Shown: positions 891 through 17,866 of the stretch, one piece after another | How the letters are laid out: every line of letters starts with the position of its first letter | How positions within the stretch are numbered: the first letter of the stretch is position 1 | Assembly (NCBI GenBank): GCA_025927475.1 | Contig: JAICLL010000005.1 | Coordinates: 21,219 to 85,218 of the forward strand | Source of the DNA: Pirellulales bacterium | Lineage (GTDB): Bacteria > Planctomycetota > Planctomycetia > Pirellulales > JAICIG01 | Length of the DNA: 64,000 nt | Reading direction: 5' to 3' | Translations under genes and position numbers: made by a program | Notes under the pieces: model-generated | Databases searched by the model: none | Told to the model about the DNA's origin: nothing | What the model saw: the letters and a program-made list of their open reading frames with translations, nothing else

Positions 891-1460
891 CTAGATTTTT
901 TCGAGCAGGTAATCGTCGATCTCGACCGAGACGCCCTGTTGAATCAGGTTCACCGCGACCACCAGCCGGCATTTGCGGCGGCGCGAGACGACGGTGCCCT
1001 CGACTCCTTCCAGCGAGCCGCGGATCACCCGTACCCGGTCGCCTGGTTTGAGGCGGCTTTCGAGCGTCAGCGGCGCCTTGTATTCGATTAAGCGAGAAAT
1101 CTGCAACAGGTCTCGCGCCAATTCATCGGCGTTCTTCACCAGTAGCACCTGGGCGATCCGGTTGGTCGTCAGGCTGGTGTACCGCTCAGCTTCGTCACCA
1201 TACATGAAAAGGTAACTGGTGAAGAGCGGGATAAACGAGGTTCGCTTCCGGCCGCGCACGATGGCCGTCTTTTCGACCTGTGGCAAATAAAACGGGATGC
1301 GATAGCCCAGCAGGTCACGAGCCAAGCTCTTTTCCTGTCGAGCCCTGGTGTGCACCACCCACCAACGGCGGTCGAGCGAAGCGTCCGCGAGGTCCGGTTC
1401 TTGCCAGTTGACGAGCAACCTCTCGGGGAAACAGTCGGTTTCGGCAGTTAGACTCGGCAT
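891..1460 (-). CDS. NusG/RfaH-family transcription antiterminator paralog 1 (NGN + KOW)
   Basis: NGN-like RRWWVVHTRARQEKSLARDL..IPFYLPQV and KOW-like PGDRVRVIRGSLEGVEGTVV. The ATG at 1460 is preceded by AGGAAG. The ORF track extends to 1607, but that extension is not matched in paralog 2. Confidence 0.85.
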   Translation of the reverse strand: MPSLTAETDCFPERLLVNWQEPDLADASLDRRWWVVHTRARQEKSLARDLLGYRIPFYLPQVEKTAIVRGRKRTSFIPLFTSYLFMYGDEAERYTSLTTNRIAQVLLVKNADELARDLLQISRLIEYKAPLTLESRLKPGDRVRVIRGSLEGVEGTVVSRRRKCRLVVAVNLIQQGVSVEIDDYLLEKI

Positions 1461-1663
1461 GGGTCTTCCTTTTGATTCAGTGGGTGCAAGCGTTGCTGTC
1501 ATCCTCTCCTTTTGGAAACCACCCAAACATACTAAGCTGCGACGGCCGAATTGTGAAGCAAAATCCGGCTCATTTAGAAATAAAGATGGGCCGGGGCAGG
1601 CAGGCACGGGCGCCTCGTATTAGGCGACGGGCTGCAAAACTTGACGCACTCAAGCGGTAGTCA

Positions 1664-2050
1664 TTATGACTTTTCGCCGGATCCGCCAAGCTTCTCGGTG
1701 GAATCGGCCATAAAAAACCGCGCCGATGTCTCGAAAAGGTCGCCAAACGCCTGTGACTGCGAAGCGGCGACAACGATCTCGACGATCTCCCCGGCCGGAG
1801 AAGGAATGCGCAGGGCAATCCGTTCGCTTCGAATGGGCTGGCCGTGGATAAACTGCAATTGGTAGTCGGTGATACTATGAACGATGGCCCAGATCCGCGA
1901 TTCGAGCGGAGGGGAGTCGCCATCAAGCTCGACGGCGGTAGCCAACAGGGGCTTCGAGCGAAGCACCGCGTCGGGGTTTGAGGGCGTGAGGCGGTTCATG
2001 AGTTCCACGACGTTGGTGATCCGCTTGCTGACTGACTCGGCCTGTTCCAT
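1664..2050 (-). CDS. small conserved hypothetical protein S1 (128 aa), paralog of 4080..4547
   Basis: It shares IALRI..GEIVEIV..GDLFETSARF with IAVRI..GEMIQVL..GDLYETQARF of the second copy and lies directly upstream of NusG-like paralog 1 on the same strand. Confidence 0.65.
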   Translation of the reverse strand: MEQAESVSKRITNVVELMNRLTPSNPDAVLRSKPLLATAVELDGDSPPLESRIWAIVHSITDYQLQFIHGQPIRSERIALRIPSPAGEIVEIVVAASQSQAFGDLFETSARFFMADSTEKLGGSGEKS

Positions 2051-2272
2051 GGTCGCTTTCCGTACTTTATCGCAAAACGCTGGCGCCCTACCCGCAGTTG
2101 CGGCAGCTCTGTTCTCGCCCCGTCGAAAGACGTTTGGCTTGGTCCGATGCGTCGTCCAAACGGCACATCGCTTTCAGCGCGGCAACGGGACTCGCCCAGC
2201 GGCCGACCCTGGCCCGCCGGCGCGCTTGAATCGCGCGTGGCGCACTCCGATAACGCGCGGAGCTCTTCCGCA

Positions 2273-2692
2273 CTAGGCTTGCGGAGGGCGCAAGTGATCG
2301 AAGAACGGCGAGGGAGGCAAGCGCAACGCGCGCTCCTCCCACAGGCCGGCAATCAAACCCGGCGAAGGAAGACCGCAGGTCTGCGGCAATACGGCCGTCG
2401 AACCCGCCATGCTTGATGTCGTGTTCGAGGAAGATCCAGAACTCGGTGATGAGGCACCTCGCGAAAAGTCAAGCAGATCGTTTTCGGCCGCACCTGCACG
2501 CTCGACGCGCGAACTGCCGCCCTGGCGCTGGGTCGCCGACATGCCAGCGCCGCAGACCTGGACCGAAACAATTAGGCCCCCCTGTGCCGGTTCCGCTATC
2601 GCCAAGGCGGCCACGACGAGCGCGGGCAAAGCCATCCAGCGCCCAAATGAGGCGAGAATTGGCCCCAGCCGTAGGATTAGGGAGGTAAACAT
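2273..2692 (-). CDS. small secreted Ser/Gly-rich protein, family member A (tail FFDHLRPPQA)
   Basis: Signal-peptide-like WMALPALVVAALAIAEPAQGG, an SSPSSGSSSNTTSS core, a single late Cys and a C-terminal LPPSPFFDHLRPPQA. ATG at 2692; the ORF track starts at a GTG at 2731. Confidence 0.6.
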   Translation of the reverse strand: MFTSLILRLGPILASFGRWMALPALVVAALAIAEPAQGGLIVSVQVCGAGMSATQRQGGSSRVERAGAAENDLLDFSRGASSPSSGSSSNTTSSMAGSTAVLPQTCGLPSPGLIAGLWEERALRLPPSPFFDHLRPPQA

Positions 2693-2734
2693 CTGGTTAC
2701 CCTGAGGGCGCACCGGTTCTCTCAAACGCACTAT

Positions 2735-2770
2735 ACCGTAATCGGTAATAGCCGCTTGTCAAGCGAATTC
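2735..2770 (-). promoter_or_regulatory. candidate promoter with palindromic -35 context upstream of family member A
   Basis: On the minus strand, GAATTCGCTTGACAAGCGGC (2770-2751), with TTGACA at 2762-2757, then TACGGT at 16 nt or TATAGT at 21 nt. Confidence 0.4.
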
Positions 2771-2788
2771 TCATACAATTCCCTTGCT

Positions 2789-4126
2789 TTAAGCCTTACG
2801 AATTCGCCCGCGACCTTCCCGAACATGGCGGGTGGCATTCCGCGTATCGACCACCAGGCGCGAGTGCCGTACGATCTGCTCGTAATCATAGACTGAGTGG
2901 TCCGTGGCAATCAGCACACAGTCTTGGCTGTTGAGAAACTGAGGGGTCAGCTCTTGGCTGGCCATCTCGGGCACGTTGTGATGCCGCATCTGCGGCAGGT
3001 GGGGAATGTGAGGATCATTGTAGGTGACGATCGCTCCCCGCGCCCGCAGCAGGTCGAGCAGCTCGAACGAAGGGCTTTCGCGCGGGTCATCGACGTCTTT
3101 CTTATAGGCCATGCCCAAGAGACAAATCCGGCTGCCTCGCAAAGGCTTGCTCTGCTCGTTGAGAAACTCGGCAATCCGCCCGACCACATACTCGGGCATG
3201 CGCGTGTTTACTTCGCCAGCCAGTTCAATGAAGCGCGTGGTCAGACCGTGGCGGCGGGCCAGCCAAGTGAGATAAAACGGGTCAATCGGAATGCAATGCC
3301 CGCCCAGGCCGGGACCGGGGTAAAACGCCTGAAAGCCGAAGGGCTTGGTCTTGGCCGCTTCGATCACCTCCCAAACGTCGATGCCCATTCGGTCGTAGAG
3401 CGTCTTCAACTCGTTGACCAGCGCGATGTTGACCGCTCGGTAGGTGTTTTCCAAGATTTTGCAGGCCTCGGCAACTTCCATGCTCGAGACGGAAACGACC
3501 TTGACCACGGCGTGCCCATAGAGCGCCGCCGCCAATTGCAGGCTTTCTGGATCCGCACCGCCCACCACCTTGGGAATTCGCGCGGCCGAGTAATCGGCGT
3601 TGCCCGGATCTTCGCGTTCGGGGCTGTAGGCCAGCCAAAAGTCGCTGCCCAACCCGAAGCCGCTTTTTTGCAGAATCGGCAGCACCACGTCGCGCGTCGT
3701 CGTGGGATAGGTGGTGCTTTCTAGTACGACCAACTGCCCTGGTCGTAGGGCGGCGGCGATGGCCGAGGCCGTTCCCTCGACATAAGTGAGATCGGGGTCG
3801 CGGCTTTCGGTTAGGGGCGTCGGCACGCAGATCAGCAGGGCGTCTGCCTCGGCCAGTCGCCGCATGTCGGCGGTGGCCTCGAACCTGCCGCCCGCCAGCC
3901 ATTGCGCAACGGTGGCCGAGTCGATGTGCTTGATATAGCTGCGACCGGCCTGAAGCGACTCGACCTTCCGCGGATCGACGTCGAAACCGAGACACGAGAA
4001 GCCCGACTGCGTAAAGGCGTGAATCAGCGGCAGGCCGACATAGCCTAGCCCGATCACCCCCACACGGGCCGTCTTGTTCTTAATCGCCGCTTCCAACCGA
4101 CGCAACGTAGTGACGGTCGGACTCAC
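2789..4126 (-). CDS. nucleotide-sugar 6-dehydrogenase (UDP-glucose/GDP-mannose dehydrogenase family; WbpA/TviB-like)
   Basis: N-terminal Rossmann motif VGVIGLGYVGLP and catalytic-Cys motif GLGGHCIPIDP; 445 aa, typical length. Confidence 0.9.
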   Translation of the reverse strand: MSPTVTTLRRLEAAIKNKTARVGVIGLGYVGLPLIHAFTQSGFSCLGFDVDPRKVESLQAGRSYIKHIDSATVAQWLAGGRFEATADMRRLAEADALLICVPTPLTESRDPDLTYVEGTASAIAAALRPGQLVVLESTTYPTTTRDVVLPILQKSGFGLGSDFWLAYSPEREDPGNADYSAARIPKVVGGADPESLQLAAALYGHAVVKVVSVSSMEVAEACKILENTYRAVNIALVNELKTLYDRMGIDVWEVIEAAKTKPFGFQAFYPGPGLGGHCIPIDPFYLTWLARRHGLTTRFIELAGEVNTRMPEYVVGRIAEFLNEQSKPLRGSRICLLGMAYKKDVDDPRESPSFELLDLLRARGAIVTYNDPHIPHLPQMRHHNVPEMASQELTPQFLNSQDCVLIATDHSVYDYEQIVRHSRLVVDTRNATRHVREGRGRIRKA

Positions 4127-4547
4127 TGCCAGCTCCTGGTTTGAAAGCGGAAGAAGGTGCCTTGGTTTCGTCTGGAATGAACCTAGCCTGCGTTTCGTAG
4201 AGATCGCCGGTTTTGCGCGATCGCCCGACCGAAAGCAGCACTTGGATCATCTCGCCGGTAATCAACGAAATGCGGACGGCGATTTGCTTGCTCGACATCG
4301 GTTGGGTATGGGTCAGCCGCATTCCGCGGGTGGTGACGCTGTGCAGCACCACCGAGAAGGGCGGGCCGGGCAATGAGATTCCACCGGCCAGGTTACCCGC
4401 CAACTCGCCGTGCAGTGGAACAGCCGACGCGGCCAGCGAAAGCTCACTTTGCTTTCGGGCGGCCTGGCCGGGCGCAATTCTCCGCAGCAAATCGCCAAAC
4501 GTCGTGGGACGCTCTTGCATCGAGTCGGCCTCCGTGCCCGCCTTCAT
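4080..4547 (-). CDS. small conserved hypothetical protein S2, paralog of 1664..2050
   Basis: C-terminal two thirds align with S1 (GDLYETQARF motif). The upstream part of the 316-aa ORF overlaps the plus-strand NusG gene and crosses an AT-rich tract, so the ATG at 4547 (or 4520) is preferred. Its stop overlaps the dehydrogenase start. Confidence 0.55.
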   Translation of the reverse strand: MKAGTEADSMQERPTTFGDLLRRIAPGQAARKQSELSLAASAVPLHGELAGNLAGGISLPGPPFSVVLHSVTTRGMRLTHTQPMSSKQIAVRISLITGEMIQVLLSVGRSRKTGDLYETQARFIPDETKAPSSAFKPGAGSESDRHYVASVGSGD

Positions 4548-4795
4548 GGCAGCGCCCCATGACAAAGCGGCTCTGAATATATGGCCTACCGAGAGAGGCC
4601 GCAAGCCCTGGTCAAAAAAATCGGGTTGTAACGATTCTTGCCGCGGAAACATGTTCTTGTGCCTGAAGTTGCGTTGTGACTTCCCCGCGGGGCGATCGGT
4701 CGTTACCATGGAGACATAGGTCGCTTCCCCAGTTGGAAGCTTTTTTACAGGGGGGCAGGTGCGGATGAGCGCCCTCTGCCAGGACGTGTTAGCGC

Positions 4796-5404
4796 ATGCC
4801 GATTCGCGGCCCAGAACTCCAGTGCTTTCCCCACGACCTGCTGACGTGCGGCGGGATCGACGCAGTTGCGTCTGGCTTCGTCGACCTCGCCGCAGAGGGC
4901 GTTGCAGAAACTTGCCGGGCCGGCCGCCGCTGGTGGGTCGTGCATACCAAGGCCCGCCAGGAGAAAAGCGTCGCTCGCGAGCTGCTCGATCGAGAGATTC
5001 CCTATTTCTTGCCGCAAATTCCCAAAACATCGGTCATCCGGGGTCGCCGCCGCACTTCGTACATTCCGCTGTTCACCGGCTACGTGTTCGTTTATGGCAG
5101 CGAACGCGAACGCCACGAGAGTCTGACCACGAACCGCGTGGCCAATACCCTGCCGGTTAACAACGCCGATGAGCTCACGCGCGACCTCCTCCAAGTTTGG
5201 CGTCTGATCGAGCAGAACGCTCCGCTAACCGTCGAGGCTCGATTGCGCCCTGGCGACCGCGTACGCGTGCGTGGCGGGGCCCTGGCCGGGGTGGAAGGCA
5301 CGGTGCTCGACCGCCGCGGCAAGTGCCGCGTGCTCGTGGCCGTGCGCCTCCTCCAGCAAGGCGTGTCGATGGAGATCGACGACTTTCTGCTAGAGCCAAT
5401 CTGA
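4796..5404 (+). CDS. NusG/RfaH-family transcription antiterminator paralog 2 (NGN + KOW)
   Basis: RRWWVVHTKARQEKSVARELL..IPYFLPQI and PGDRVRVRGGALAGVEGTVL. It shares the N-terminal E-x-x-CFP-x-x-LL motif with paralog 1. Confidence 0.88.
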   Translation: MPIRGPELQCFPHDLLTCGGIDAVASGFVDLAAEGVAETCRAGRRWWVVHTKARQEKSVARELLDREIPYFLPQIPKTSVIRGRRRTSYIPLFTGYVFVYGSERERHESLTTNRVANTLPVNNADELTRDLLQVWRLIEQNAPLTVEARLRPGDRVRVRGGALAGVEGTVLDRRGKCRVLVAVRLLQQGVSMEIDDFLLEPI

Positions 5405-5462: not shown

Positions 5463-6356
5463 CTACGTCGCCGCTAGGGCGAGGTCGTTACGCGCGGCAA
5501 GCTTGCGCCGCCGTCGGGTGACCGCGGCCAGGCCGAGAGCGCCTGCGCCCCACATGAACATGGTAGCTGGCTCTGGCGCCTGTGTGGGAATGTTGCCGTT
5601 CGAGGCGCTCAAACCCGACGTGCCGGAAAGCGATCCTGGGGCGTAGCTGGGGGCCGTGTTCGAGGTCAAGAACAAGACTGGCGAATAGGAATTTGCGGCC
5701 AGCAAGTGATTGCCGAAAAAGTTGGTCCACGAGAACGTCGCCGCGCCGCCGCTGCTGGTGCCGCCGAGCGAAAGGACGCCGGTCGGGGCGGTGGTGGCGA
5801 CTCCCGAATTCGTAAAGGGCGCCGCTGCATTCAAGCTCTGCCCGCTCACCGAGGGATAGTAATACTGTTGGTTGTCAGGCGGCGTGCCCGTCGGCTGCGT
5901 GCCGATGTACGGGTGCGCGTTGGTGACCGCCGTATCATTGAACACGTAGTTGTTCAACCACCCACCCGACGAGTAAGGGTTCGAATAGCTGTTGACATTG
6001 AAGTTGGCGATTGATCCGTTACCGGCAGCCGGTGCCGTGTTGACCACTTCATAAAAGAAAACGAACGACGCAGCGCTGTCGGCCGTATTGCCGCCGCTGG
6101 CGTCAAGCACACCAGCCAGATCGCTACTGGTGAAACCGAGTTGGCTCAGCCAGTTGCCGCCGTCTGCGCCGGTGTTTTGGTAGACGGCGAAATCGACCAC
6201 GCCGCCAGCCGAGGAACCGGCGTCGGCGAACTCAGTCCAGCCGGTAAAACCCGGCTGAAACTGGGCATTCGCCTGACCACAGAGGGCTGCCCAAGCGGCG
6301 ACGACCAGCAACGCCAGGGCGCGTAGACTCAATAGATTCGATACCACAAAACGCAT
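5463..6356 (-). CDS. PEP-CTERM sorting-domain secreted protein 1 (exosortase substrate)
   Basis: C-terminus QAPEPATMFMWGAGALGLAAVTRRRRK (PEP motif + TM helix + Arg cluster) and an N-terminal signal peptide. The ATG at 6356 is preceded by AAGGAG at 8 nt. Confidence 0.9.
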   Translation of the reverse strand: MRFVVSNLLSLRALALLVVAAWAALCGQANAQFQPGFTGWTEFADAGSSAGGVVDFAVYQNTGADGGNWLSQLGFTSSDLAGVLDASGGNTADSAASFVFFYEVVNTAPAAGNGSIANFNVNSYSNPYSSGGWLNNYVFNDTAVTNAHPYIGTQPTGTPPDNQQYYYPSVSGQSLNAAAPFTNSGVATTAPTGVLSLGGTSSGGAATFSWTNFFGNHLLAANSYSPVLFLTSNTAPSYAPGSLSGTSGLSASNGNIPTQAPEPATMFMWGAGALGLAAVTRRRRKLAARNDLALAAT

Positions 6357-6444
6357 GGAGATACTCCTTCGATACATACCCGTTCAACTTGTCGAGAAAC
6401 TTGCCGAAAAACAGCGACGCCGAAAAACAGCGCCGCCGCCGCGT

Positions 6445-6900
6445 CTAGGCAAGGCGACAAGGTGGGCGCAAAAAATCGAAGGTCGGCGGCGTGGGCAAGG
6501 CGGCATTGGCCCGCTCCAGGCATGCGCCATTCGGCTCCAACGAGCCCGACGAAACTCCCGCCGACAAGACAACCGCCAAGGTTGGGCCGCCGGACGTAGC
6601 CGATGTGCCCGCACCCGACGCGCCCGAAATCGGGCTGGCCGGTTGATCGACCTGCGAAGGATCGGCCTTCCGCGGTTCGCCATCTTGATCGGGCGAAACA
6701 TCGTCGGCGGCATCCGAGCCGATTTTGCCAGCCAGGTTCGCCGCGCGGGCCGAGGGAGAGGCCAGTTCTTCGGGCAACACGAAGCCCGCCTGGGCCTCGC
6801 TGGCAGCCAAGCCGAACAGCGCGAGCGCCAAGGCAAAGCCCGCCAGACCGCGTAGCGGTAGGCCCGAATTTCGACAGAACGTGTTAAGGTGGACAATCAT
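6445..6900 (-). CDS. small secreted Ser/Gly-rich protein, family member B (tail FDFLRPPCRLA)
   Basis: Signal peptide LAGFALALALFGLAASEAQAG, an acidic stretch, an SGASGAGTSATSGG core, a single late Cys and a C-terminal LPTPPTFDFLRPP. It lies directly upstream of PEP-CTERM gene 1. Confidence 0.65.
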   Translation of the reverse strand: MIVHLNTFCRNSGLPLRGLAGFALALALFGLAASEAQAGFVLPEELASPSARAANLAGKIGSDAADDVSPDQDGEPRKADPSQVDQPASPISGASGAGTSATSGGPTLAVVLSAGVSSGSLEPNGACLERANAALPTPPTFDFLRPPCRLA

Positions 6901-7500: not shown

Positions 7501-8757
7501 TCAGTCGTAAACCACATTCGCCGCGGGCACAGCGTCGCCCGGCTCAATCGGTGAAGGGGTTCTGCCGCGGGTGTTCTTCTCGGCGAACAGGACCGGCGCC
7601 CGAGGCGGCGCAGCGGTTGGATAGGCCACCTTTCGCCATGACCTCATCGCCCCTCCACGCAGCCAGACCCACGGTGCGATCAATGCTGCGCCGTTCAAAA
7701 TCACAAACGATGCTGCCGCCGACGTAAGTCGAAACCGACCGGGCAACGCCAACCCCACCAGGGCCGCCGCATAAAACGCGACCTCTCCCGCGAACAGTGC
7801 TCGATACAGCGGCAACCGCCACAGGCAGCCGCTGCTGATGAACATCACCAACAGCGCCCAGGGTACGACCAGCCGCAACAGCTTGTGCGAGATCACCGCC
7901 ACCCACAGGGGATTGCGCCGCGGGTCGAGCAGCTCGGGCAGGACCGACAAAAGTTGCAGGTTGCCGCTGAGCGTTCGCACCTTGCGGTGGAATTCATCGC
8001 GCGACCGCGGAGGCAGCCGATCGTAGGCTTTCGCGCGGCTGTCGAACACCACGCGGTAGCCTTGCATCGCTACTTGCAAGGGCCAATAGACGTCGTCGAG
8101 CACCAGCCCGCGCGGCATCGGGCGGAACAGCTCTTTCCGCACGGCCGAGATGGCGCCGGTCACGCCCGGCATGGCATGAACCCGACTTTCGCTGCGCCGC
8201 AGCCACTTTTCGTATCGCCAGTAAAGCCCGATGCCCGCAGCCTCGCCTGACGATCGCTCCAGCAGCAATTCGCCGCTGACCGCGCCCACCTCGGCGTCGG
8301 CGAAGTTTTCGATCAGCCGGTTCAAGGCGTCTGGTGACCATCGCTGCCGTGCGTCGGCAAAGACGACGATGTCGTGCCGCGCCATCTCGACGCCCAGATT
8401 CAAGGCGGCGGCTTTGCCCATCTTTTCGCCCAGGTCGAGCACGCGCACCGAAGCTGCCGTGCTGGCAGTGGCCGCGACGGCGGTAGTACGATCGGTCGAG
8501 CCATCGGAAACCACGATGACCTCGCCGTCAGCCCCGCCACGGGCGATCATCTCCGCCAGTTCGACCACGCGCCGTTCGATTTGGTGCTCTTCATTGTGGG
8601 CCGCCACAATGATGGAAACCGGCGCGCGATGCCCCTCGGCCGCGCGCGCCGGCCGCGCCCGCCACCGCGACCTGGCCGCCATCATCAGCGGATACAGCAG
8701 GTAGGTGTAGACGGCGGATACCGCGCCAATGCCAAAAATAATCTCAAACCACATCAT
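7501..8757 (-). CDS. family 2 glycosyltransferase with flanking TM segments
   Basis: VSIIVAAHNEE..VIVVSDGSTDRT GT-A signature, with an N-terminal TM and C-terminal multi-TM region. Confidence 0.88.
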   Translation of the reverse strand: MMWFEIIFGIGAVSAVYTYLLYPLMMAARSRWRARPARAAEGHRAPVSIIVAAHNEEHQIERRVVELAEMIARGGADGEVIVVSDGSTDRTTAVAATASTAASVRVLDLGEKMGKAAALNLGVEMARHDIVVFADARQRWSPDALNRLIENFADAEVGAVSGELLLERSSGEAAGIGLYWRYEKWLRRSESRVHAMPGVTGAISAVRKELFRPMPRGLVLDDVYWPLQVAMQGYRVVFDSRAKAYDRLPPRSRDEFHRKVRTLSGNLQLLSVLPELLDPRRNPLWVAVISHKLLRLVVPWALLVMFISSGCLWRLPLYRALFAGEVAFYAAALVGLALPGRFRLTSAAASFVILNGAALIAPWVWLRGGAMRSWRKVAYPTAAPPRAPVLFAEKNTRGRTPSPIEPGDAVPAANVVYD

Positions 8758-8763
8758 GGATAA

Positions 8764-9846
8764 TCAATGTTCTTTCGCCGTCAAGATGTCGAGGACTCGT
8801 GCGGCAGCACTGCCGTCCCAAAATTGAGGCACGCGACCAACCGCTGGTTCCCCAGCAATCGCCGCCAAGCCAGCTTCGATGATCCGCTCTGGATTCATGC
8901 CCACTAAACAGTTTGTCCCCTCGCTGACCGTCGAGGGCCGCTCGGTGTTCGCCCGCAACGTCAGGCAGGGCACGCCCAGCACCGTGGTCTCCTCTTGAAT
9001 TCCGCCCGAATCGGTCAGCACTAGCCGCGCGTGAGCCAGCAGCTTCATAAAATCGAGATAGCCCAGCGGGTCGGTTAGCCGCAGATGGGGCATTTGGGCC
9101 AAATTCCACCCGGCCAGTGCCTGGCGCGTGCGCGGGTGTACTGGAAAGACAATCGGCAGCTCGCTTTGCAGCCGGCCGACCGCGCGGGCCAGGGCTTGAA
9201 ACACCGCCGAATCGTCGACATTCGACGGCCGGTGCAGCGTGAGTACGCCGTAAGGCTGGCCTTCCAGTTCAAGCTGCCGCAACACATCGGAATGTTCGCT
9301 CCGCTCGCGGCATGCCAACAAGGTGTCGATCATCAGGTTGCCCACAAAGAACATCCGCTCTTCGGCCACGCCTTCGCGGCGTAAATTCTCCAAGCCGCTT
9401 GGCTCCGAGACAAACAGCCAGCGGCTGATGGCGTCGGTGAGGATGCGGTTAATCTCCTCGGGCATGGCGCGATCGAAGCTGCGCAAGCCCGCTTCGATAT
9501 GTGCGACTGGCACGCCCAGTTTGACGGCGGTCAGCGCGCAGGCGATGGTCGAATTCACATCGCCCACCACCACCACGGCGTCGGGCCGCTCGTCCAGCAG
9601 CACCGGTTCAAAGCGCTTCATCACTTCGGCGGTCTGCACGGCGTGCGAGCCTGAGCCGACTTCCAAATTGGCGTCGGGCCGCGGAATGCGCAGCTCGTCA
9701 AAGAAGAGCTGCGACATTTGCTGGTCGTAGTGTTGGCCGGTATGGACCAAAAGCGCCTCGACGCCTGAGCGCCGCTCGATCTCCCACATCAGCGGGGCGA
9801 TCTTCATAAAGTTCGGTCGGGCGCCGACCACGGCGAGAAGTTTCAT
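8764..9846 (-). CDS. wecB: UDP-N-acetylglucosamine 2-epimerase (non-hydrolysing)
   Basis: MKLLAVVGARPNFMKIAPL..HTGQHYD..GDVNSTIACALTAVKLGVPVAHIEAGLRSFDRAMPEEINR is the classical WecB signature. Confidence 0.93.
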   Translation of the reverse strand: MKLLAVVGARPNFMKIAPLMWEIERRSGVEALLVHTGQHYDQQMSQLFFDELRIPRPDANLEVGSGSHAVQTAEVMKRFEPVLLDERPDAVVVVGDVNSTIACALTAVKLGVPVAHIEAGLRSFDRAMPEEINRILTDAISRWLFVSEPSGLENLRREGVAEERMFFVGNLMIDTLLACRERSEHSDVLRQLELEGQPYGVLTLHRPSNVDDSAVFQALARAVGRLQSELPIVFPVHPRTRQALAGWNLAQMPHLRLTDPLGYLDFMKLLAHARLVLTDSGGIQEETTVLGVPCLTLRANTERPSTVSEGTNCLVGMNPERIIEAGLAAIAGEPAVGRVPQFWDGSAAARVLDILTAKEH

Positions 9847-10010
9847 GGGCAGGATTCAGGATTCGGGATTCGGGGAAGAAGGCAATTGCCTTCATTTTCA
9901 GCATTCATCTTTTTGCCCCACATTTTTTTGTCTATCTCTTCGTGTTCTTGGTGTTCTTTGTGGTTCAACTCAATTCCCTGGCCCCCGGCCTCTGACCTCC
10001 GATCCCTCTC
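9847..10010. repeat. composite repeat block (GATTCGGG-type, CTTTTTGCCCC..CTTTGTGGTTCAA-type and GGTCAGAGG-type units)
   Basis: 9851-9883 AGGATTCAGGATTCGGGATTCGGGGAAGAAGG recurs at 27319-27347. 9890-9969 is about 80% identical to 11380-11462. 9975-10010 is related to 11521-11560 and encodes the C-terminal tail of the adjacent GT. Confidence 0.8.
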
Positions 10011-11184
10011 TTATCACTTCCAGCAAATGTCTCTCAACTTCCGCCAGCTTGGCATCCCAGCTTTCATGGCGGATGGCGTCGCTGCGCTCGTACGAGGGGC
10101 CTGGGTCGGCCAGCGCCTCGCAAATCTCCTGTTGGAAAGCATCGACCCCGGCGGCGATGCGGCATTGCCCCAGCACCTCGACCTCGGGTATCGGCGTCGA
10201 GATCACCGGCAAGCCCGCCGCCAAATACTCGCGCACCTTGAGCGGGTTGGCGTTCAGCGTCAGCTCGTTAATGCGAAACGGCATCAACGCCACATCAAAC
10301 CCCTTGCAGTAGGCCGGCAACTCTTCATACGGCTTGCGGCCGAGCAAATGCACGTTCGGCAAGGCCGCCAGCTCCGAGACATCGGTCGTCACCTTGCCCA
10401 GCACCACCAGCGACCCGTGCGGAAACCGCCGGGCCATCTCGGCCATCAATTCGACATCGACCCAGTCGGCCACCAGCCCGAAAAAACCGATTACCGGTTT
10501 CGGCAGTCGGGCCAGCTTTTCGGGCACGCGCGTCTCGGGCAATAGCGCCTTACGAAAATGATCGAAATCGACCCCGTGCCGCACCAGATGCGTCCGCGGG
10601 TTGAACGGACTTTTGCTCTGATAGAGCCGGTCAGCCGAGACCACCACCAGGTCCGCCCGATCGAGCAACTGCCGCTCCAACTCGGCCAGGGCCGTCGCCG
10701 TCACCCCGGTGAACTCGGTGTACTCATCGACGCAGTAATACACGACGGCCTCTTCGCCAAGCTGCCCGGCGATGACGGCCGCGGCGGGATTGAACACCCA
10801 ATTCAGCGGGCGGCGAAAACGCAGCCGCCGCATGGCTCGCCGCACCTGGTGCGTCAGAAACCGCCGGTTGAACGCGCGCACCGCCCGGCTGCCGTAGGCG
10901 GGCACGGCCAGCGGATTGAGCACAAAGATATTCGGCTCCGGCTCGCGAATGGGCGACATGGCCGCCGACAGCTTTTTCAGCGCGCGTCCCAGATCGGCCT
11001 TCGACACCGTCGGCGTGCGGTTGCCGATCGAGTTGACCCACAGCACGCGGTTGTGTCGCGCCAAGAGCCTCATCAGGTGCGTCTTCGACAGCGGATCTCC
11101 GCTCCAGTCGTGGCTGAAGCATAGGATGTCGCGCCCGTGCAGTCGCTTTGCGTCCGCGGCGGTGAGTGGTTCTTCAACGAGCAT
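9970..11184 (-). CDS. glycosyltransferase (GT1/GT4 clan, TuaH-like N-terminus)
   Basis: ILCFSHDWSGDPLSKTHLMRLLAR..VLWVNSIG, similar to 50125..51333. The C-terminal GT-B half carries an E-x7-E-like region. The last ~10 codons (SEVRGRGPGN) are encoded by a repeat unit. Confidence 0.8.
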   Translation of the reverse strand: MLVEEPLTAADAKRLHGRDILCFSHDWSGDPLSKTHLMRLLARHNRVLWVNSIGNRTPTVSKADLGRALKKLSAAMSPIREPEPNIFVLNPLAVPAYGSRAVRAFNRRFLTHQVRRAMRRLRFRRPLNWVFNPAAAVIAGQLGEEAVVYYCVDEYTEFTGVTATALAELERQLLDRADLVVVSADRLYQSKSPFNPRTHLVRHGVDFDHFRKALLPETRVPEKLARLPKPVIGFFGLVADWVDVELMAEMARRFPHGSLVVLGKVTTDVSELAALPNVHLLGRKPYEELPAYCKGFDVALMPFRINELTLNANPLKVREYLAAGLPVISTPIPEVEVLGQCRIAAGVDAFQQEICEALADPGPSYERSDAIRHESWDAKLAEVERHLLEVIREGSEVRGRGPGN

Positions 11185-11565
11185 GGAGGGACTGGGGACT
11201 GGGGAACAGGAAGGGGACGGGATTCAGGGGGCGGGCGTCAGGAACGAAGCAGGATTCGGGATTCTGTAGGGAACGCCCTCTGTGGCGTTCCGCGTTCTAC
11301 GGGTTTCGTCCGCGAACAGCTTGGTCGGGGGCGGGGGAACCACAAAGGTCACGAAGAGCACGAAGAAAACGTTACTTGTTCGCGCTCATTTTTTGCTCAC
11401 ATCTTTTTGCCCCTCAATCTTTTTGCCTATCTCTTTTTGTTCTTTGTGCTCTTTGTGGTTCAATTCCCGTTTCCGGCCACGAGGGCCGGCGCTATCGATC
11501 CGGCCACAAGGGCCGGGGCTACACATCCCCCCTGACCCCCGACCTCTGAACCCCGCCCCCCTGCT
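11185..11565. repeat. composite repeat block filling a whole intergenic spacer and running into the 3' end of the next gene
   Basis: It contains GGGGAACAGGAAGGGGACGGGATTCAGGG, AGGATTCGGGATTC, CTGTAGGGAACGCCCTCTGTGGCGTTCC (11264-11293), the inverted pair GAACCACAAAGG..(11337-11372) / ..CTTTGTGGTTC (11436-11462), two CCGGCCAC(A/G)AGGGCCGG hairpins (11473-11516), and CCCCTGACCCCCGACCTCTGAACCCC. Confidence 0.8.
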
Positions 11566-12818
11566 TCGCACGCCGCGGCCAGTACTTCGGCCAGTTGCTC
11601 CGCAGATTCTCGCCAAGTGCGAATGCAACGCTGTACCAACTCGGTGTGGACGCGCGGCGGTGCGGCCAGCACTTCCGCCAGCGCCGCGGCCAGTGCCGGC
11701 GCATTGCCCGGTTCGACCAGCCGGCTGTAGGAAGGATCCGCGATCTCGGGAATGCCGCCGACGCGCGTGGCGACAAACGGCCGAGCGCAGGCAAGCGCCT
11801 CGTAGAGCACATTGGGGATTCCCTCGGAAAAGCTGGGTAAGGTCACCACGTCGCAGGCCCGGTACCAATCGGGCAGTTCCGCATGCCCGCGCGGCCCGAC
11901 CAGCTTTACGCAATCGCCCAACCCATATTTGGCGATCAGCGACCGCACTTTGCCTTCGTCGCTCCCGCCGCCAACCACGTAGCACTCTGTAGGGAACGGA
12001 CTCCGTGCCGTTCCGCCCTCGTTCGTATTCCGGCCCGCGCTGGCCTCCGGCCCCGCGGAACGCCACGGAGTGCGTTCCCTACAGACGATGCCGCGGTCTC
12101 GCAGTATCCGGCAGGCTTCGACCAGCACGCCGGTCCCCTTGCTCAGCAATACGTTGCCGACGAATAAAATGATTCGCTGCTCCGGCGGCAGACCGAGCCG
12201 CCGCCGAGCGTCTTGCTGCTCGCCGGGGCTGAAGATGTCGCGATCGATCCCTCCTAAGACAACGTCGATCCGACGCCGGTCGACTCCCAGCCGTTCGACG
12301 TGCGCGGCCAGATCGCGGCTTACGGCCACGACGCGATCGGCGCAGCTCAGCGCCTCGCCAATGTACATGCGGCGGCGCATGTCCCGCGTCGCCACGAGCA
12401 CGTCAGAACCAACGACTTTGATCACCACCGGTAGACCGGCCTGACGGGCCAGCCTGAGTGCGGCCCAGCCGTCGGGATGAGCCCAACAGGCTAAGAGCAC
12501 GTCGGGCTGAAACTGGGCGAGAGCCTGCTGCACGCACTTGCGAATGCTGTGGTAAAAAAAGTGGCCCGCGCGCGGCCGCATCATGCGCGGCGGATAGTAA
12601 AACAGGGGATGCTCGACCTCCACGCCGTCGGAATTCGTATAACGGCCGGGAGCGGGGCGACGCTGCCATTGGTCCTTAAGCGCTTGATGCCAGGGCACTG
12701 GTGCGATGACGCGAACCGCGTGGGCCTGCGCTAGCGCTCCGAATTGCTGCCGATTGAACGGAGCAATCAAGTCGTGTCCCGGCCGCGGATACAGATTGGT
12801 GATGGAGAGAATGCGCAT
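11460..12818 (-). CDS. family 4 glycosyltransferase carrying an in-frame ~33-codon palindromic-element insertion
   Basis: GT-B/GT4 features (MRILSITNLYP.., EGIPNVLYEALACARPFVATRVGGIPEI). The segment CRERTPWRSAGPEASAGRNTNEGGTARSPFPTE is encoded by the inverted repeat at 11987-12084. The C-terminal tail is also repeat-encoded. Confidence 0.85.
   Translation of the reverse strand: MRILSITNLYPRPGHDLIAPFNRQQFGALAQAHAVRVIAPVPWHQALKDQWQRRPAPGRYTNSDGVEVEHPLFYYPPRMMRPRAGHFFYHSIRKCVQQALAQFQPDVLLACWAHPDGWAALRLARQAGLPVVIKVVGSDVLVATRDMRRRMYIGEALSCADRVVAVSRDLAAHVERLGVDRRRIDVVLGGIDRDIFSPGEQQDARRRLGLPPEQRIILFVGNVLLSKGTGVLVEACRILRDRGIVCRERTPWRSAGPEASAGRNTNEGGTARSPFPTECYVVGGGSDEGKVRSLIAKYGLGDCVKLVGPRGHAELPDWYRACDVVTLPSFSEGIPNVLYEALACARPFVATRVGGIPEIADPSYSRLVEPGNAPALAAALAEVLAAPPRVHTELVQRCIRTWRESAEQLAEVLAAACEAGGRGSEVGGQGGCVAPALVAGSIAPALVAGNGN
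11987..12084. repeat. 98-bp palindromic element (two inverted CTGTAGGGAACG..CGTTCC units) inside a coding gene
   Basis: CTGTAGGGAACGGACTCCGTGCCGTTCC at 11987-12014 and its inverted partner GGAACGCCACGGAGTGCGTTCCCTACAG at 12057-12084. The same unit occurs at 14132-14160 and 11264-11293. Confidence 0.85.
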
Positions 12819-12837
12819 CCGTTTTGTCCGCTCTTCT

Positions 12838-14181
12838 CTAGGCGCGCACCAGTGCCGGCTGTCGACAGGCGGAACGTAAACTACAGTAGACCCGTTCGTA
12901 CTCCGCGGCCATCCGCGTCAAACTAAGGTCGCGCTGCACGCGGGACAGTCCGGCCTCCGCCAACCGAATGCGCAACGGCGGGTCGGCGCACAACGTCTCC
13001 AAGATCTCCGCCAACTGGGCATCGTCTCCGCTGGCAAACAGCTTTCCGGTGACACCATCTTCGATTAACTCAGGCACGCCGCCCACGGCCGAACCAACGA
13101 CGGGCAGGCCTGCCGCCCAGGCCTCCAAGATGGAAAGCGGCATTCCTTCGGAGCGGCTGGTGAGCGCGAAAACATCCATTCGCTGCAGGTACACTTCAGG
13201 CGCCGCTTGGTAACCGGCAAAGTGGGTCCGCTCGCGGATTCCTAACGCGTCGGCCAATCGCTCCAATTCGCCGCGCATCGGCCCATCACCGACCAGCAGC
13301 AGCCGCGCCTCCGGCCTGTTCGCCGCCAATCGGGCGAACGCTCGTAGCAGCACGTCTTGGCGTTTAATTTCGTTCAATCGACCAATCGTGCCAATGGTGA
13401 GACTAGGGGCTGGCGGCTGGAAGGCGAAAGAGTGGGGACGCGACAAGGCGACATCGCCTCCCTGAAGCCCGAATCCCGAATCCAGGATCCTTTCCGCTGC
13501 CTGTTCCCCGTCCCCTGTCCGCTGTCGCCTAAACCTTTCCACATCGATCCCATTGGGCACCACCACCAGCTTGGCGGCCGGAACGACCTTCATCGCACGT
13601 ACGGCCTCGCAAATGTCGTTTGACACGCAGCAGAATCGCTGGGCATAACGGCCCGCCAACCGCCCCATCCACCGCGTGCGCCGCCGCGCGTAATGCTTGC
13701 CGTGCTCGGTGTGAATGACCGCTCGGATGCCGGCCCGCCGCGCAGCCGGACCCGCGTAGAGCAGCGCGCCGATTTGATGGGTATGCACCACGTCTGTTTT
13801 CAATTCGCCAAAGATCCGCACCAACGGGGCGATGATGCCGGGGCGCAGGCCAGGCAGCTTACTGACGCACCGGACCTCGGCCCCGGCCGCACGGGCGTCG
13901 TCGGCCAACGCGCCCGGCCGCTCCAGGCAAACCACCGCGGTCCGTTGCCCGAGCCGGGCCCCCTGGCGCGCCAGGTCGATCACCAGCCGTTCCAGCCCTC
14001 CCACGTCAAGCGAAAGCACGACGTGCGCCACGCCAAGAGGCCTGGTTTCAATGGGCGCGGTCAAAGCAACCTCGGATTGGTGTTGATAATTGGTTTTGGC
14101 AATCAATATCGGTGGGTCATACACTCGACGTCTGTAGGGAACGGACTCCGTGCCGTTCCGTGACCTGTCAATTGGCCTCAT
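12838..14181 (-). CDS. family 4 glycosyltransferase with in-frame repeat-derived insertion
   Basis: VAHVVLSLDVGGLERLV.. N-terminus and SEGMPLSILEAWAAGLPVVGSAVGGVPELI E-x7-E region. The first ~40 codons of the ORF are repeat-derived, so the real start may be TTG 14064 or GTG 14031. Confidence 0.85.
   Translation of the reverse strand: MRPIDRSRNGTESVPYRRRVYDPPILIAKTNYQHQSEVALTAPIETRPLGVAHVVLSLDVGGLERLVIDLARQGARLGQRTAVVCLERPGALADDARAAGAEVRCVSKLPGLRPGIIAPLVRIFGELKTDVVHTHQIGALLYAGPAARRAGIRAVIHTEHGKHYARRRTRWMGRLAGRYAQRFCCVSNDICEAVRAMKVVPAAKLVVVPNGIDVERFRRQRTGDGEQAAERILDSGFGLQGGDVALSRPHSFAFQPPAPSLTIGTIGRLNEIKRQDVLLRAFARLAANRPEARLLLVGDGPMRGELERLADALGIRERTHFAGYQAAPEVYLQRMDVFALTSRSEGMPLSILEAWAAGLPVVGSAVGGVPELIEDGVTGKLFASGDDAQLAEILETLCADPPLRIRLAEAGLSRVQRDLSLTRMAAEYERVYCSLRSACRQPALVRA
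13400..13530. repeat. repeat-derived segment inside GT4 gene (GATTCGGG-type and GGGGACGGGGAACAG-type units, reversed)
   Basis: 13467-13490 GCCCGAATCCCGAATCCAGGATCC and 13501-13520 CTGTTCCCCGTCCCCTGTCC are reverse complements of units seen at 11190-11265. They are translated as ILDSGFGLQG.. between conserved GT4 blocks. Confidence 0.65.
14132..14160. repeat. single CTGTAGGGAACGGACTCCGTGCCGTTCCG unit
   Basis: Its first 28 nt (14132-14159) are identical to the 11987-12014 arm; the next base differs (G at 14160, C at 12015). Confidence 0.85.
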
Positions 14182-14498
14182 CCTGCCGTGGCGGCCCGCC
14201 CCCCTCGCCGACTTGCCCGGCAGGAGCGCAAGTTTGACAGGCTAAAAACGATCTCAGCGAACTGCTGTCCACTTGCCGTCTATCGCGTGCCGGCAGAGGA
14301 AAGACGGCGGACAGAACGGTGGGCAGGGCGCCACTTAGCCATCCAAACTCGTTCACCTGCCAGACCAAGCTGGCAGGGGGCGTGGCCGTTCCCGGCATTT
14401 GTGTAGAGCAACGAGCGGGCAAGCCCCCGTCGTGGCGGAACGAAAGCAGAATGTACGATCCGTTTGGGCGGCGCACCCATTTCAATACCCGCAACCGC

Positions 14499-15617
14499 TC
14501 AAATCCCATTGGCCGCCGTCGGTTCCAGCACCGCCAGCACGGGCCGATGGTCGGAGCCGACGTGCGGCCCCACCCAAGCGCGCTCGACGCGAAAACCTGC
14601 TCCTGCCAAAATATGGTCGATCCGAATGCCGTACCAGTTGCCCGATGTCGTGTAGCCATACGTATATCCATAGCCCCAGCCGGCCGCGGCAAAGGCGTCG
14701 GAAAATGCTGACCAGTCGCGGCGAAAAATCGAGCTCTCGTGGGGCAAGTTCATATCGCCCGCCACAATCACCGAGCCTTCCAGCACGTCGACCCAGCGGC
14801 GCAGCTCGGCCGATTCTCGATCACGTCGCGCGCGGTTGGCCCGCATGCCCTCGATGCCCGCCAAACGGCGGTCCTTGATGGCCTCGAGCCCCTTGCGCGG
14901 CGTATAAAGGTGGACGGCAACAAAGTCGATCGGCCCGGAGGGCGTCTCCATCCGGTAGTCGATGGCCACCGTCCTCCACGAAGCCGCTTTGCTGCCAGTA
15001 AACAGCTTGCGACGGACGATCGGAAATTGGGTGGCCACCAAAATGCCTGGCGTCACTTCGATCTGCCAATTCGGCCCCAATAGTTGCCGCATGCCCTCTT
15101 CGTCGAATTTCTCTTGGAGCGTAATGATGTCGGGCCGCTCGTCGGCGATCAAAGTCGCCAGCGCGCCCGGCGCGAGCGGCGCCAGCCCGACGTTGCAGGT
15201 GAGCACGCGCACCGGAGGATAGCCGCCTGCGTCGTCGCTTGCGACCGCGCTGGCTATCCGCTGCCAGGGGACGCAGAAGCCCATCAGCGGCCAAGCCACC
15301 CACAGCGCCGACAGGGCCACCAGCCAAGTCAACCTTCGCCGCCAAAGGAGAACCACGGGCAAGATCACCGCCAGCGGCAGCGGCCAAACCCAGCGAGGCG
15401 CGAACAGCAACACCGTGGTCCACCACCAGCGGTCGCCGCCGACGCGCAAGGCCAGCCAGGCGGTAATGACTCCCGCCGCATACGCCCAAGCGAGCCACCC
15501 CGCCAGGCGCCAGACCACGCCACGCCGCGTCGCGGCCCCGGCGGGCGCTGCCGCACGATTCATACGCTCGCCTTTGGCGGAATCAGGCCGCGCGGTCACT
15601 CTCCTTTTTTGGTCCAT
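14499..15617 (-). CDS. endonuclease/exonuclease/phosphatase (EEP) family protein with N-terminal TM segments
   Basis: RVLTCNVG..DIITLQE..GDMNL..GSDHRPVLAVLE are the EEP catalytic motifs; the N-terminus has about 3 hydrophobic helices. Confidence 0.8.
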   Translation of the reverse strand: MDQKRRVTARPDSAKGERMNRAAAPAGAATRRGVVWRLAGWLAWAYAAGVITAWLALRVGGDRWWWTTVLLFAPRWVWPLPLAVILPVVLLWRRRLTWLVALSALWVAWPLMGFCVPWQRIASAVASDDAGGYPPVRVLTCNVGLAPLAPGALATLIADERPDIITLQEKFDEEGMRQLLGPNWQIEVTPGILVATQFPIVRRKLFTGSKAASWRTVAIDYRMETPSGPIDFVAVHLYTPRKGLEAIKDRRLAGIEGMRANRARRDRESAELRRWVDVLEGSVIVAGDMNLPHESSIFRRDWSAFSDAFAAAGWGYGYTYGYTTSGNWYGIRIDHILAGAGFRVERAWVGPHVGSDHRPVLAVLEPTAANGI

Positions 15618-15717
15618 TCCGTTTACGATTTCAAAGCTCCGATAATGAGTCCATCATGGCGGTGAATCGCTAGGTGCGTTCGAAACGACCAAGCGCGAGC
15701 GTAGCTGCGCGTAGTTC

Positions 15718-16977
15718 TCAGTACCTTGCCAGTTGCACTGCCTCTGGTGCGGCGGGCAGCGATTCTTTTCGCTTGACCCGGCGCGGCTTCACAAATGCAT
15801 CGCGAAGCACAAGAAACGGATGTTCGATCAGGCAGTAAGTCACGACTGCCGCCGCGGCCGACAACGCCGCGACGATACACTCCGAAGCCAAGAGGTGCAG
15901 CGACGGCGCCGTGTCTCTACCGGGCAGATAGGCTAGGGTGAAACGAACTGCCGGCGCGTGGAGATACGAATGGTTCAGATACATGCCATACGAAAGCCGA
16001 GACAACCAATAAAACACCCGCCCCGATATCGCGCGGTTGATGAAGCCTTCGGGCGGTAAGAAGCGGTCAGTCTGCAGAGCGAGCCAAACCAAGCTACCAA
16101 GAAGAAATGTCATCCCCGTGAGGTTGAATACCTCGCGCTGCACGCCGCGGAATAGAGGCATGGCGATGCACGAGGCCAGCAACAGCACCCAGGCGGTCAG
16201 GGCGGCGCCGCCGCGCACTGAATCTCGGCCGCGCTCAACGACCAGGTTTGCGAGAATCAGGCCCATCAGCAGTCCGTCACAGTTGGAATGAATAGGTTGG
16301 TAAATGTGTCGGTTCCATAGCCCCGGGTCATGGCGCCAAAAATCGCCCGTCAGGCGACACCAGGTCAACGCACGGATGGCCGGCAGCGCCAACAAGGCAA
16401 TCCAGAGATAACGCCGGTAGCGCGCCACCGGCGTGACGAACTGCGCGGAAACAATCAGCGCCAGCGGAGCGAGCAGATAAAATTGCTCCTCCGTGCAGAG
16501 CGACCAGCTACCCATGACGACGCCGTGGTTGAGATAGTTCGTGAGAAACACGGCGTCCGACCAGCCTTGACCGCCGAGAAAATCTCCCCGGCCCAACACG
16601 CAGAGCACAAAGACCAGGAAAAAGAAGTAGAGCGGCCAGATCCGGAAGCCGCGCCGCAAAAAGAACCGCCAAAAATCGATGGTGCCTTGGGTGGCCAGCT
16701 CGCGCCAGAGCTGCAAACCGATCAAGTAGCCGCTGAGCACGAAAAAGAGGTTGACGCCGATCCAGCCCGCGCCCAAGATTCGAACCCGTCCAAGTGCGCT
16801 GTGTATTCCTCCAGCGTTCTCGTAACTTTCAAGCGTGTGGCCCCAGACCACAATGAGCACCGCGCAGGTGCGCAGCACGTCGAGCGCCGGCAGTTGGCCA
16901 CGCGGCCGATGCCGAAGATCGTTGAGAGAACCGGCAAAGAGTCGGCTCAGTTGATTCGCGGCGGCTTCGATAGTCAC
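15718..16977 (-). CDS. acyltransferase family 3 (integral membrane O-acyltransferase, OafA/YrhL-like)
   Basis: About 10 TM helices and an N-terminal LDVLRTCAVLIVVWGHT motif typical of acyltransferase_3. Confidence 0.82.
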   Translation of the reverse strand: MTIEAAANQLSRLFAGSLNDLRHRPRGQLPALDVLRTCAVLIVVWGHTLESYENAGGIHSALGRVRILGAGWIGVNLFFVLSGYLIGLQLWRELATQGTIDFWRFFLRRGFRIWPLYFFFLVFVLCVLGRGDFLGGQGWSDAVFLTNYLNHGVVMGSWSLCTEEQFYLLAPLALIVSAQFVTPVARYRRYLWIALLALPAIRALTWCRLTGDFWRHDPGLWNRHIYQPIHSNCDGLLMGLILANLVVERGRDSVRGGAALTAWVLLLASCIAMPLFRGVQREVFNLTGMTFLLGSLVWLALQTDRFLPPEGFINRAISGRVFYWLSRLSYGMYLNHSYLHAPAVRFTLAYLPGRDTAPSLHLLASECIVAALSAAAAVVTYCLIEHPFLVLRDAFVKPRRVKRKESLPAAPEAVQLARY

Positions 16978-17855: not shown

Positions 17856-17866
17856 CGTTCAATCGC

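Follow-up and report, generated by a model that had tools for sequence, protein, structure and literature searches.

Specialised NusG paralogs and PilZ-derived neighbours in an exosortase-type exopolysaccharide locus of a Pirellulales bacterium

Is a small protein that is encoded beside a specialised NusG paralog a partner of that paralog? The question is raised by a 64-kb stretch of DNA from a Pirellulales bacterium (contig JAICLL010000005.1, which is at least 104 kb long, positions 21,219 to 85,218; G+C about 62%), which was analysed as a whole and is called the window here. Its closest relatives are metagenome-assembled genomes (MAGs) of Pirellulales. The window contains two genes for NusG paralogs, NusG1 and NusG2, and each lies next to a gene for a small protein, S1 and S2, in an exopolysaccharide (EPS) locus. 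By means of specialised NusG paralogs (RfaH, UpxY, LoaP, TaA) bacteria keep RNA polymerase going on very long operons for envelopes, capsules and secondary metabolites. To our knowledge UpxZ, of the Bacteroides system, is the only dedicated protein antagonist of a NusG paralog. A reading of the window made from its letters and translations (the sequence-only reading) had proposed that the two NusG genes and their neighbours form a comparable circuit of antitermination and cross-inhibition. All four open reading frames (ORFs) of that proposal were found at the positions it had given, with only the probable start of S2 revised, from 4547 to 4652.

NusG paralogs and motif-less PilZ-derived proteins

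NusG1 (189 aa, 891..1460, minus strand) and NusG2 (202 aa, 4796..5404, plus strand) were identical at 120 of 202 residues (59%, E=2e-85). The NGN domain (PF02357, cut-off 22.2 bits) was detected with 35.9 bits (E=1e-8) in NusG1 and 43.3 bits (E=5e-11) in NusG2, and KOW (PF00467) weakly, just under the cut-off of 22.3 bits in both proteins (20.0 and 18.2 bits). UpxY (NF033644) was the best-scoring NCBIfam family with 80.9 bits for NusG1 and 83.6 bits for NusG2, still under its curated cut-off of 100. It was followed by RfaH, LoaP and housekeeping NusG, all under their own cut-offs; the RfaH scores were 52.6-54.7 bits against 144.5 for TIGR01955 (NusG1 54.7) and 45-48 bits against 124 for NF006534. 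The assignment of both as specialised paralogs with NGN and KOW was thereby confirmed, with UpxY as the best curated match. The ratio of nonsynonymous to synonymous substitutions (dN/dS) of the NusG genes against their orthologs was about 0.1. No further NusG paralog or S copy was found elsewhere in the window.

The AlphaFold2 (AF2) model of NusG2, made from a 41-sequence alignment, consisted of an NGN domain and a beta-barrel KOW and had a predicted local distance difference test score (pLDDT) of 81. In this single predicted state the KOW formed at least four strands (residues 155-195), that is a beta-barrel rather than the alpha-hairpin of autoinhibited RfaH. The best full-length Foldseek matches of the model were NusG, fully recruited (active) RfaH and Spt5. 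Both proteins carry the reported N-terminal motif E-x-x-CFP-x-x-LL, within an MP..E..CFP..LL extension. It was found to be the local form of a more general motif, MPIL..E...[YF]P..LL, that is common to the Planctomycetia members of the family and is the hallmark of this branch (window 4796-4846 and 1410-1460; relatives, whose loci are given as L numbers, L014-L047, L055 and L057). The motif is missing from the Phycisphaerae members and occurs with or without an S gene nearby. In the AF2 model the extension had a pLDDT of 71-81 and formed a short strand, and judging from the model it may dock onto a domain or onto RNA polymerase.

The family to which NusG1 and NusG2 belong comprises at least 448 protein clusters (90% identity), whose members go by 'NusG family protein' or 'RfaH' in the sources. 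Scanning species-representative genomes for a sequence pattern gave 47 loci, 46 of them in Planctomycetota (Pirellulales, Thermoguttaceae, Phycisphaerae) and the remaining one a weak match in a Pyrinomonadaceae MAG. When the neighbours of these 47 loci were clustered, the exosortase EpsH recurred in 10 and a Wzz/BY-kinase-like AAA_31 protein in 13; tetratricopeptide repeat (TPR) proteins, Poly_export, NAD-epimerases, heparinase II/III-like enzymes and sugar nucleotidyltransferases were also recurrent. In several Pirellulales the NusG gene and an exosortase-Wzz-TPR operon are transcribed divergently, and in some relatives among the Phycisphaerae it heads the EPS operon. This is a large, unnamed family of NusG paralogs tied to exosortase loci across Planctomycetota. 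Our literature search gave no paper linking exosortase with NusG or NusG paralogs with Planctomycetes, an absence that is not proof of novelty.

The window fits this family-wide picture. Its minus-strand glycan array extends over 31 kb, from 36758 down to 5463, and starts with the exosortase gene (35643-36758; EpsH, PF09721, E=1.6e-54). Genes for a Wzz-like kinase, a 1487-aa TPR protein, a DUF3485 (EpsI-like) protein and a priming sugar transferase follow, and after them Wzm/Wzt, a methyltransferase, several glycosyltransferases of GT2/GT4, an acyltransferase, a UDP-GlcNAc 2-epimerase and a further GT2. In the 3' part a 600-nt gap with a promoter-like site precedes the genes for small secreted protein 2 and a PEP-CTERM protein. 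EpsH and a PEP-CTERM substrate (5463-6377) are both encoded in the window, which identifies it as a PEP-CTERM/exosortase EPS system and bears out, by Pfam, the glycan-locus setting that had been proposed. With the known systems of this kind it shares EpsH, the DUF3485/EpsI-like protein, the Wzz-like kinase, the TPR protein, the priming transferase and PEP-CTERM substrates; it differs from them in having a dedicated NusG family as a recurrent neighbour of the exosortase operon, which was not found in the searched literature. From the neighbourhoods across the family we infer that the exosortase-led array (7501..36758, minus strand; by Pfam EpsH, Wzz/BY-kinase-like, giant TPR protein, DUF3485, priming transferase and Wzm/Wzt ABC transporter) is the candidate target of the NusG paralogs.

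Past NusG2 the minus-strand run continues with S2, a dehydrogenase, small secreted protein 1, S1 and NusG1. NusG1 is the last gene of this run, and NusG2 stands alone on the plus strand, pointing towards the array end. The NusG genes had been described as standing at the edge of a single-strand array. The edge position held, but it is the downstream (3') end and not the promoter end, and the exosortase promoter region lies about 30 kb upstream of them. A second glycan array runs from 64000 to 43435 and encodes GT4 proteins, an asparagine synthase, UbiA, a carbamoyltransferase, a FemAB-like protein and VanZ. As a separate observation, the gene divergent from the exosortase operon (37317-41201, plus strand) encodes a protein of 1294 aa that has PKD and DUF4214 domains, and in several relatives the position of this gene is taken by a NusG paralog.

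S1 (128 aa, 1664..2050, minus strand) is encoded upstream of NusG1 on the same strand, and S2 (4080..4652, minus strand; likely 190 aa) includes the core 4080-4547 of the sequence-only reading. The start of S2 is very probably the ATG at 4652 and not 4547, because L004, L005 and L006 all share the in-frame peptide M[FIV]PR.QSL.PDF... and have a stop just upstream of it; indels within this N-terminal extension preserve the frame in these loci. S1 and S2 are paralogs (30% identity over 123 columns, E=9e-19), and the strings IA[LV]RI, GE[IM] and GDL[FY]ET[SQ]ARF on which they had been grouped are present. The dN/dS values against orthologs were 0.12-0.25 for S1 and 0.36-0.48 for S2, indicating purifying selection, in comparison to 0.06 for the dehydrogenase. 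That S1 and S2 are spurious ORFs was ruled out by these values and by the conservation across loci.

Neither S1 nor S2 matched any Pfam or NCBIfam family, and a direct comparison with Pfam PilZ (PF07238) gave no match at E<=1. The AF2 model of S2 had a mean pLDDT of 68 with a beta-barrel core at 82-92, and the top Foldseek matches of this model were PilZ domains: BcsA (4hg6), VCA0042 (2rde), PA4608 (1ywu) and XCC6012 (3ph1). Relatives were few in word-indexed searches, which gave only 15 clusters, splitting into S1-type and S2-type, and only 9 proteins with alignment A4; a scan of Joint Genome Institute (JGI) metagenomes with alignment A2 found none. An exhaustive hidden Markov model (HMM) search, run over 1.84 billion representatives, yielded 106 proteins of the S family. 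Seventy of these together with S1 and S2 formed a census set of 72 sequences, and 38 of the 72 matched Pfam PilZ. S1, S2 and the roughly 25 representatives nearest to them had neither of the motifs for binding cyclic di-GMP (c-di-GMP), RxxxR and [DN]xSxxG. Among the 47 more distant representatives in the alignment RxxxR was present in 44 and [DN]xSxxG in 41.

The motif-less clade aligned with this motif-bearing sister clade in hhalign with a probability of 99.2% (E=1.2e-19). The alignment places [DN]xSxxG on S-x-T-x-x-(G/x), which reads S-x-T-x-x-G in S2-type and S-x-T-x-x-Q in S1-type proteins, and the RxxxR segment is gone from the motif-less clade. A sequence-profile search of the PDB with this clade gave only spurious immunoglobulin matches. 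Based on the fold matches and the profile-profile match, S1 and S2 belong to a rare clade of PilZ descent in which neither c-di-GMP-binding motif has survived. Since both motifs are lost, S proteins are unlikely to bind c-di-GMP, and judged by their sequences they probably cannot. The sequence-only reading had placed the small proteins in the role of UpxZ. This does not hold at the level of family: UpxZ (PF06603) had no match at E<=1 in S1 or S2 and was matched by none of the 72 family members at E<=0.01.

Known motif-less PilZ proteins act as protein adaptors. S1 and S2 resemble the motif-less ('type II') PilZ proteins, Xanthomonas XC1028 and P. aeruginosa PilZ, in being single small PilZ-fold proteins without RxxxR and [DN]xSxxG, and because these motifs are absent, as in type II PilZ, S proteins are expected to work via protein-protein contacts. 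However, they are of another lineage, whose nearest canonical relatives are planctomycete PilZ proteins with the core LIH...G.(Y/F)E..(A/G).F, and their partner by genome context is a NusG paralog or an EPS locus, not the type IV pilus ATPase or FimX.

The adjacency and its explanations

The S gene adjoins a NusG gene in the window and on nine other metagenomic or MAG contigs, and four gene orders were observed overall. In the window itself S1 precedes NusG1 in tandem, both on the minus strand, and S2 and NusG2 are divergent. The tandem order, with an S1-type gene directly upstream of an N1-type NusG gene, was also found in L001, L002, L005 and L059, and the divergent order of S2-type and N2-type genes in L004, L005 and L006. 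L017 has one gene in between (secreted protein, PEP-CTERM, S, one gene, NusG, Wzz), and its NusG is only 56% identical. L064 alone has the reverse order, with an S homolog (P0017, 38% identical to S2) directly downstream of the NusG paralog. The pairing by type was strict, S1-type always with N1-type and S2-type with N2-type. The S1-NusG1 pair was also kept amid differing flanks, which were a large upstream ORF and peptidase C25 in L001, PEGA in L005 and L059, and another ORF in the window. The adjacency is a real, conserved feature of one Pirellulales subclade, as the sequence-only proposal required, and it survives rearrangement.

We tentatively prefer the explanation that the NusG paralogs are trans-acting processivity or antitermination factors for exosortase-type EPS operons and that the motif-less PilZ proteins are adaptors modulating them, and we put this at a little short of an even chance. 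RfaH, UpxY and LoaP are antitermination or anti-pausing factors on their own operons. By the same logic the NGN domain of the window paralogs would bind the elongating RNA polymerase, and the paralogs would act in trans, through anti-pausing or antitermination, to allow read-through of very long EPS operons. S proteins, most likely as protein-protein adaptors, would modulate the neighbouring NusG by sequestering it, by activating it or by coupling it to another signalling protein. This proposal builds on the family assignments, the motif loss, the purifying selection and the conserved neighbourhood described above, and would add to them an antitermination activity, the target operons and a contact between S and NusG. 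Like RfaH, the window paralogs consist of NGN and KOW, are encoded away from the 5' end of their presumed targets and probably act in trans on long envelope or polysaccharide operons. Unlike RfaH, they score far under the TIGR01955 cut-off and have the extra MPIL..E...[YF]P..LL extension. The model of NusG2 has a beta-barrel KOW and not the autoinhibited alpha-hairpin, although a fold switch would be compatible with a single predicted state, and the k-mer searches found no ops-like element.

A bolder form of the adaptor proposal is that a PilZ-derived protein without c-di-GMP binding was recruited as a dedicated NusG partner, be it inhibitor, activator or signal coupler, and so became an independent and structurally unrelated counterpart of UpxZ that would govern processive transcription of exosortase/PEP-CTERM EPS operons in Planctomycetota. 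This is possible but rather doubtful; if true, it would be the first link of the PilZ fold to the transcription-elongation machinery.

Several observations weigh against the explanation preferred here. Of about 45 genomes that carry this NusG family, only 3 had an S-family ORF within 6 kb, and no S gene was found near NusG in L061-L063. For the outer motif-less S relatives, L007-L011, the short contigs show no NusG, and the neighbouring genes are unrelated. In L065, a Pirellulales MAG, an S-like gene (6001-6327) lies between genes for a carbamoyltransferase and a FemAB-like protein with no NusG within 6 kb. These two flanking genes are 78% and 73% identical to their syntenic counterparts in the second array of the window, where the position of the S-like gene is only a 60-nt gap (46034-46093), which indicates that the S gene moves within the EPS supercluster. 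The dehydrogenase start overlaps the S2 stop by 47 nt in a different frame (4080-4126), with the same overlap in L004 and L005, and this suggests a tie of S2 to biosynthesis genes rather than to NusG2. The PilZ fold matches of S2 were modest (probability 1.0, E about 1e-2, query TM-score (TMq) 0.28-0.43), in a model with a mean pLDDT of 68. Finally, no ops-like recruitment element appeared in the across-locus or within-window k-mer comparisons. The long leaders, such as 36759-37100, had been named as places for one, and when 11 exosortase leaders from different loci were compared, the only region to emerge was that of the NusG start codon.

Some of these observations are accounted for if S is an accessory adaptor of the EPS biosynthesis or export machinery (e.g. 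of a glycosyltransferase, a Wzz-type kinase or the sugar dehydrogenase) without a direct relation to NusG, the adjacency then arising because S and NusG genes share an EPS supercluster in a single Pirellulales lineage. The S-like gene of L065 inside a syntenic EPS array, the dehydrogenase overlap in three loci and the lack of S in most NusG-family loci agree with this, as does the top fold match of S2, BcsA, which is a polysaccharide synthase; PilZ domains are commonly attached to such synthases, including BcsA and Alg44. A shared address in EPS loci is therefore a serious alternative to a direct functional pair. However, the NusG adjacency persists over four gene orders and down to 38% S identity, S1 and NusG1 stay together though their flanks change, and the S1/N1 and S2/N2 types pair strictly, so we regard an EPS adaptor unrelated to NusG as unlikely on balance.

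The circuit of the sequence-only reading, in which S1 and S2 are functional UpxZ analogs that each inhibit the non-cognate NusG so that one of two glycan programmes is transcribed, appears improbable to us. In Bacteroides UpxZ binds and inhibits non-cognate NusG paralogs, and UpxY and UpxZ are the first two genes of their target operon (PMC11685472). The window resembles this system in having more than one locus-specific NusG paralog in a surface-polysaccharide locus, each with a small neighbour of one family and with type-specific pairing, in UpxY being the best curated match of its NusG proteins, and in its two long glycan arrays; the UpxY-to-UpxZ order is found in the relative L064. However, the window NusG proteins score 81-84 bits, under the UpxY cut-off of 100, and their small neighbours are PilZ-derived without a relation to UpxZ (PF06603). 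The pair genes are not the first two of their presumed target operons, the arrangement that defines the Bacteroides system (PMC11685472): they are found at the 3' end of the array or are divergent, NusG1 has its own promoter-like site, the window orders are S1 before NusG1 and S2 divergent, and NusG before S occurs only in L064. L017 and L064 each have a single pair with no second target visible on those contigs, and no invertible promoters were seen. As loose logic only, the analogy between the window pairs and UpxY/UpxZ is plausible.

Very improbable, in our judgement, is that S1 and S2 still sense c-di-GMP, either by non-canonical residues or via a partner whose EAL/GGDEF domain is degenerate, and place EPS antitermination under second-messenger control. 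The sister clade retains canonical RxxxR and [DN]xSxxG, and S2-type proteins keep S-x-T-x-x-G at the position of the second motif; moreover, the motif-less Xanthomonas PilZ relays c-di-GMP indirectly via FimX. Against this, the RxxxR segment is wholly gone from every member of the clade, S1-type proteins have also lost the Gly, and no GGDEF/EAL gene was noticed beside the pairs.

Control regions and neighbouring genes

The leader of S1 contains a nearly invariant element, GGGCGAGAACAGAGCTGCCGC ... GGCGCCAGCGTTTTG (2078..2120, minus strand), with counterparts in L001 (3146-3160), L005 (7614-7628) and L059 (2294-2308) that were kept despite a synonymous divergence (dS) of 0.5-0.95. It is non-coding, because the window has in-frame stops there; gene callers in relatives translate it as a false N-terminal extension of S1. 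The element has one copy in the window and is restricted to S1-type loci; it may be an operator or a leader RNA. No RNA structure is claimed for it, because only one compensatory pair was seen. In the spacer between S1 and NusG1 a consensus scan gave a sigma-70-like promoter candidate for NusG1, TTCACA-17-TAGTAT (1529..1557, minus strand), in a block that is conserved in L005 and L001; it is named as a candidate from the consensus match and this conservation only.

S2 and NusG2 are separated by a divergent control region of 143 nt (4653..4795), 80% conserved in the alignment with L005, L004 and L006. About 50 nt before the NusG2 start the scan found a terminator-like hairpin, GCTTCC-N6-GGAAGC followed by a T-run (4723-4746, plus strand). 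Three of the four loci (window, L005, L004) keep this hairpin, and in L006 it is degenerate; it was not picked out by RNAalifold and showed no covariation. The hairpin may be a leader attenuator of the NusG2 gene itself.

The exosortase operon has a long leader (36759..37128, minus strand) with a AATTCACTTGACA -35-like box at 37116-37128. In a k-mer comparison of 12 intergenic regions of the window the only shared element was such a -35-like box, AATT.GCTTGACA. Its extended form, AATT(C/T)(G/A)CTTGACA, lies on the minus strand at 2757-2769, 37116-37128, 43362-43374 and 1551-1562, before the genes for small secreted protein 1, the exosortase, ORF 41884-42741 and NusG1, with TTCACA at NusG1. Judging by this motif, the locus may use one common type of promoter. 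Rfam gave no match at the gathering threshold in the whole window, and no tRNAs were found in it.

The dehydrogenase gene between small secreted protein 1 and S2 (2789..4126, minus strand) encodes a nucleotide-sugar dehydrogenase of the UDP-ManNAc/GlcNAc dehydrogenase-like type (TIGR03026 with 419 bits and three Pfam UDPG_MGDP_dh domains). Its overlap with S2 probably explains the conserved C-terminal tail of S2, ...ESDR.HVASVG.G. The PEP-CTERM sorting-signal protein (5463..6377, minus strand) is encoded convergently with NusG2. It was identified by Pfam PEP-CTERM with 20.8 bits at a cut-off of 20.7 and by TIGR02595, and has orthologs at the same place in L004, L005 and L006. An inversion that would link the window to L004 via ORF 3-890 was considered and rejected, as the two 295-aa ORFs are unrelated and the one in L004 is of PEP-CTERM type.

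Small secreted protein 1 (2273..2731, minus strand) ends in PP..FD.LRPP and is a paralog of small secreted protein 2 (6445..6900, minus strand), which ends in PPTFDFLRPP and has a promoter-like site at 6915-6943. Orthologs of the former in L005 and L017 precede PEP-CTERM protein genes, and the latter has orthologs in L005 and L006. They belong to a family of secreted proteins of about 110-210 aa with a low-complexity Ser/Gly-rich middle and the C-terminal motif P-P-x-x-(F/D)-x-LRPP, with members in the window (2273-2731 and 6445-6900), L005 (1949-2416 and 5816-6454), L006 (18-359) and L017 (391-810). The genes mostly lie directly upstream of a PEP-CTERM protein gene, and the family has no Pfam or NCBIfam match. 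Such a protein could serve the PEP-CTERM substrate as a partner or chaperone. Two short tandem direct repeats were observed around the gene for small secreted protein 2: two copies of CCGTTTGCCGGTCCC (6965-6996) stand 17 nt apart in the 600-nt leader upstream of the gene, and two copies of GCCGAAAAACAGCG.C (6403-6434) follow directly on its stop codon, 26 nt before the PEP-CTERM gene.

Meaning of the two families

A literature search for PilZ together with NusG gave seven co-mentions, with no functional link by title or abstract. Within the searched literature the S-NusG pairing has not been described before, and the PilZ-derived neighbour would be new if the link is functional. Should S1 and S2 act on their neighbouring NusG paralogs, they would represent a second, independently evolved regulator of a NusG paralog and a new job for the PilZ fold. 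If there is no such link, two results remain, namely an exosortase-tied NusG family in Planctomycetota and a rare PilZ clade without both motifs. Both families are useful for annotation, because sources now name their members 'NusG', 'RfaH' or 'hypothetical'.

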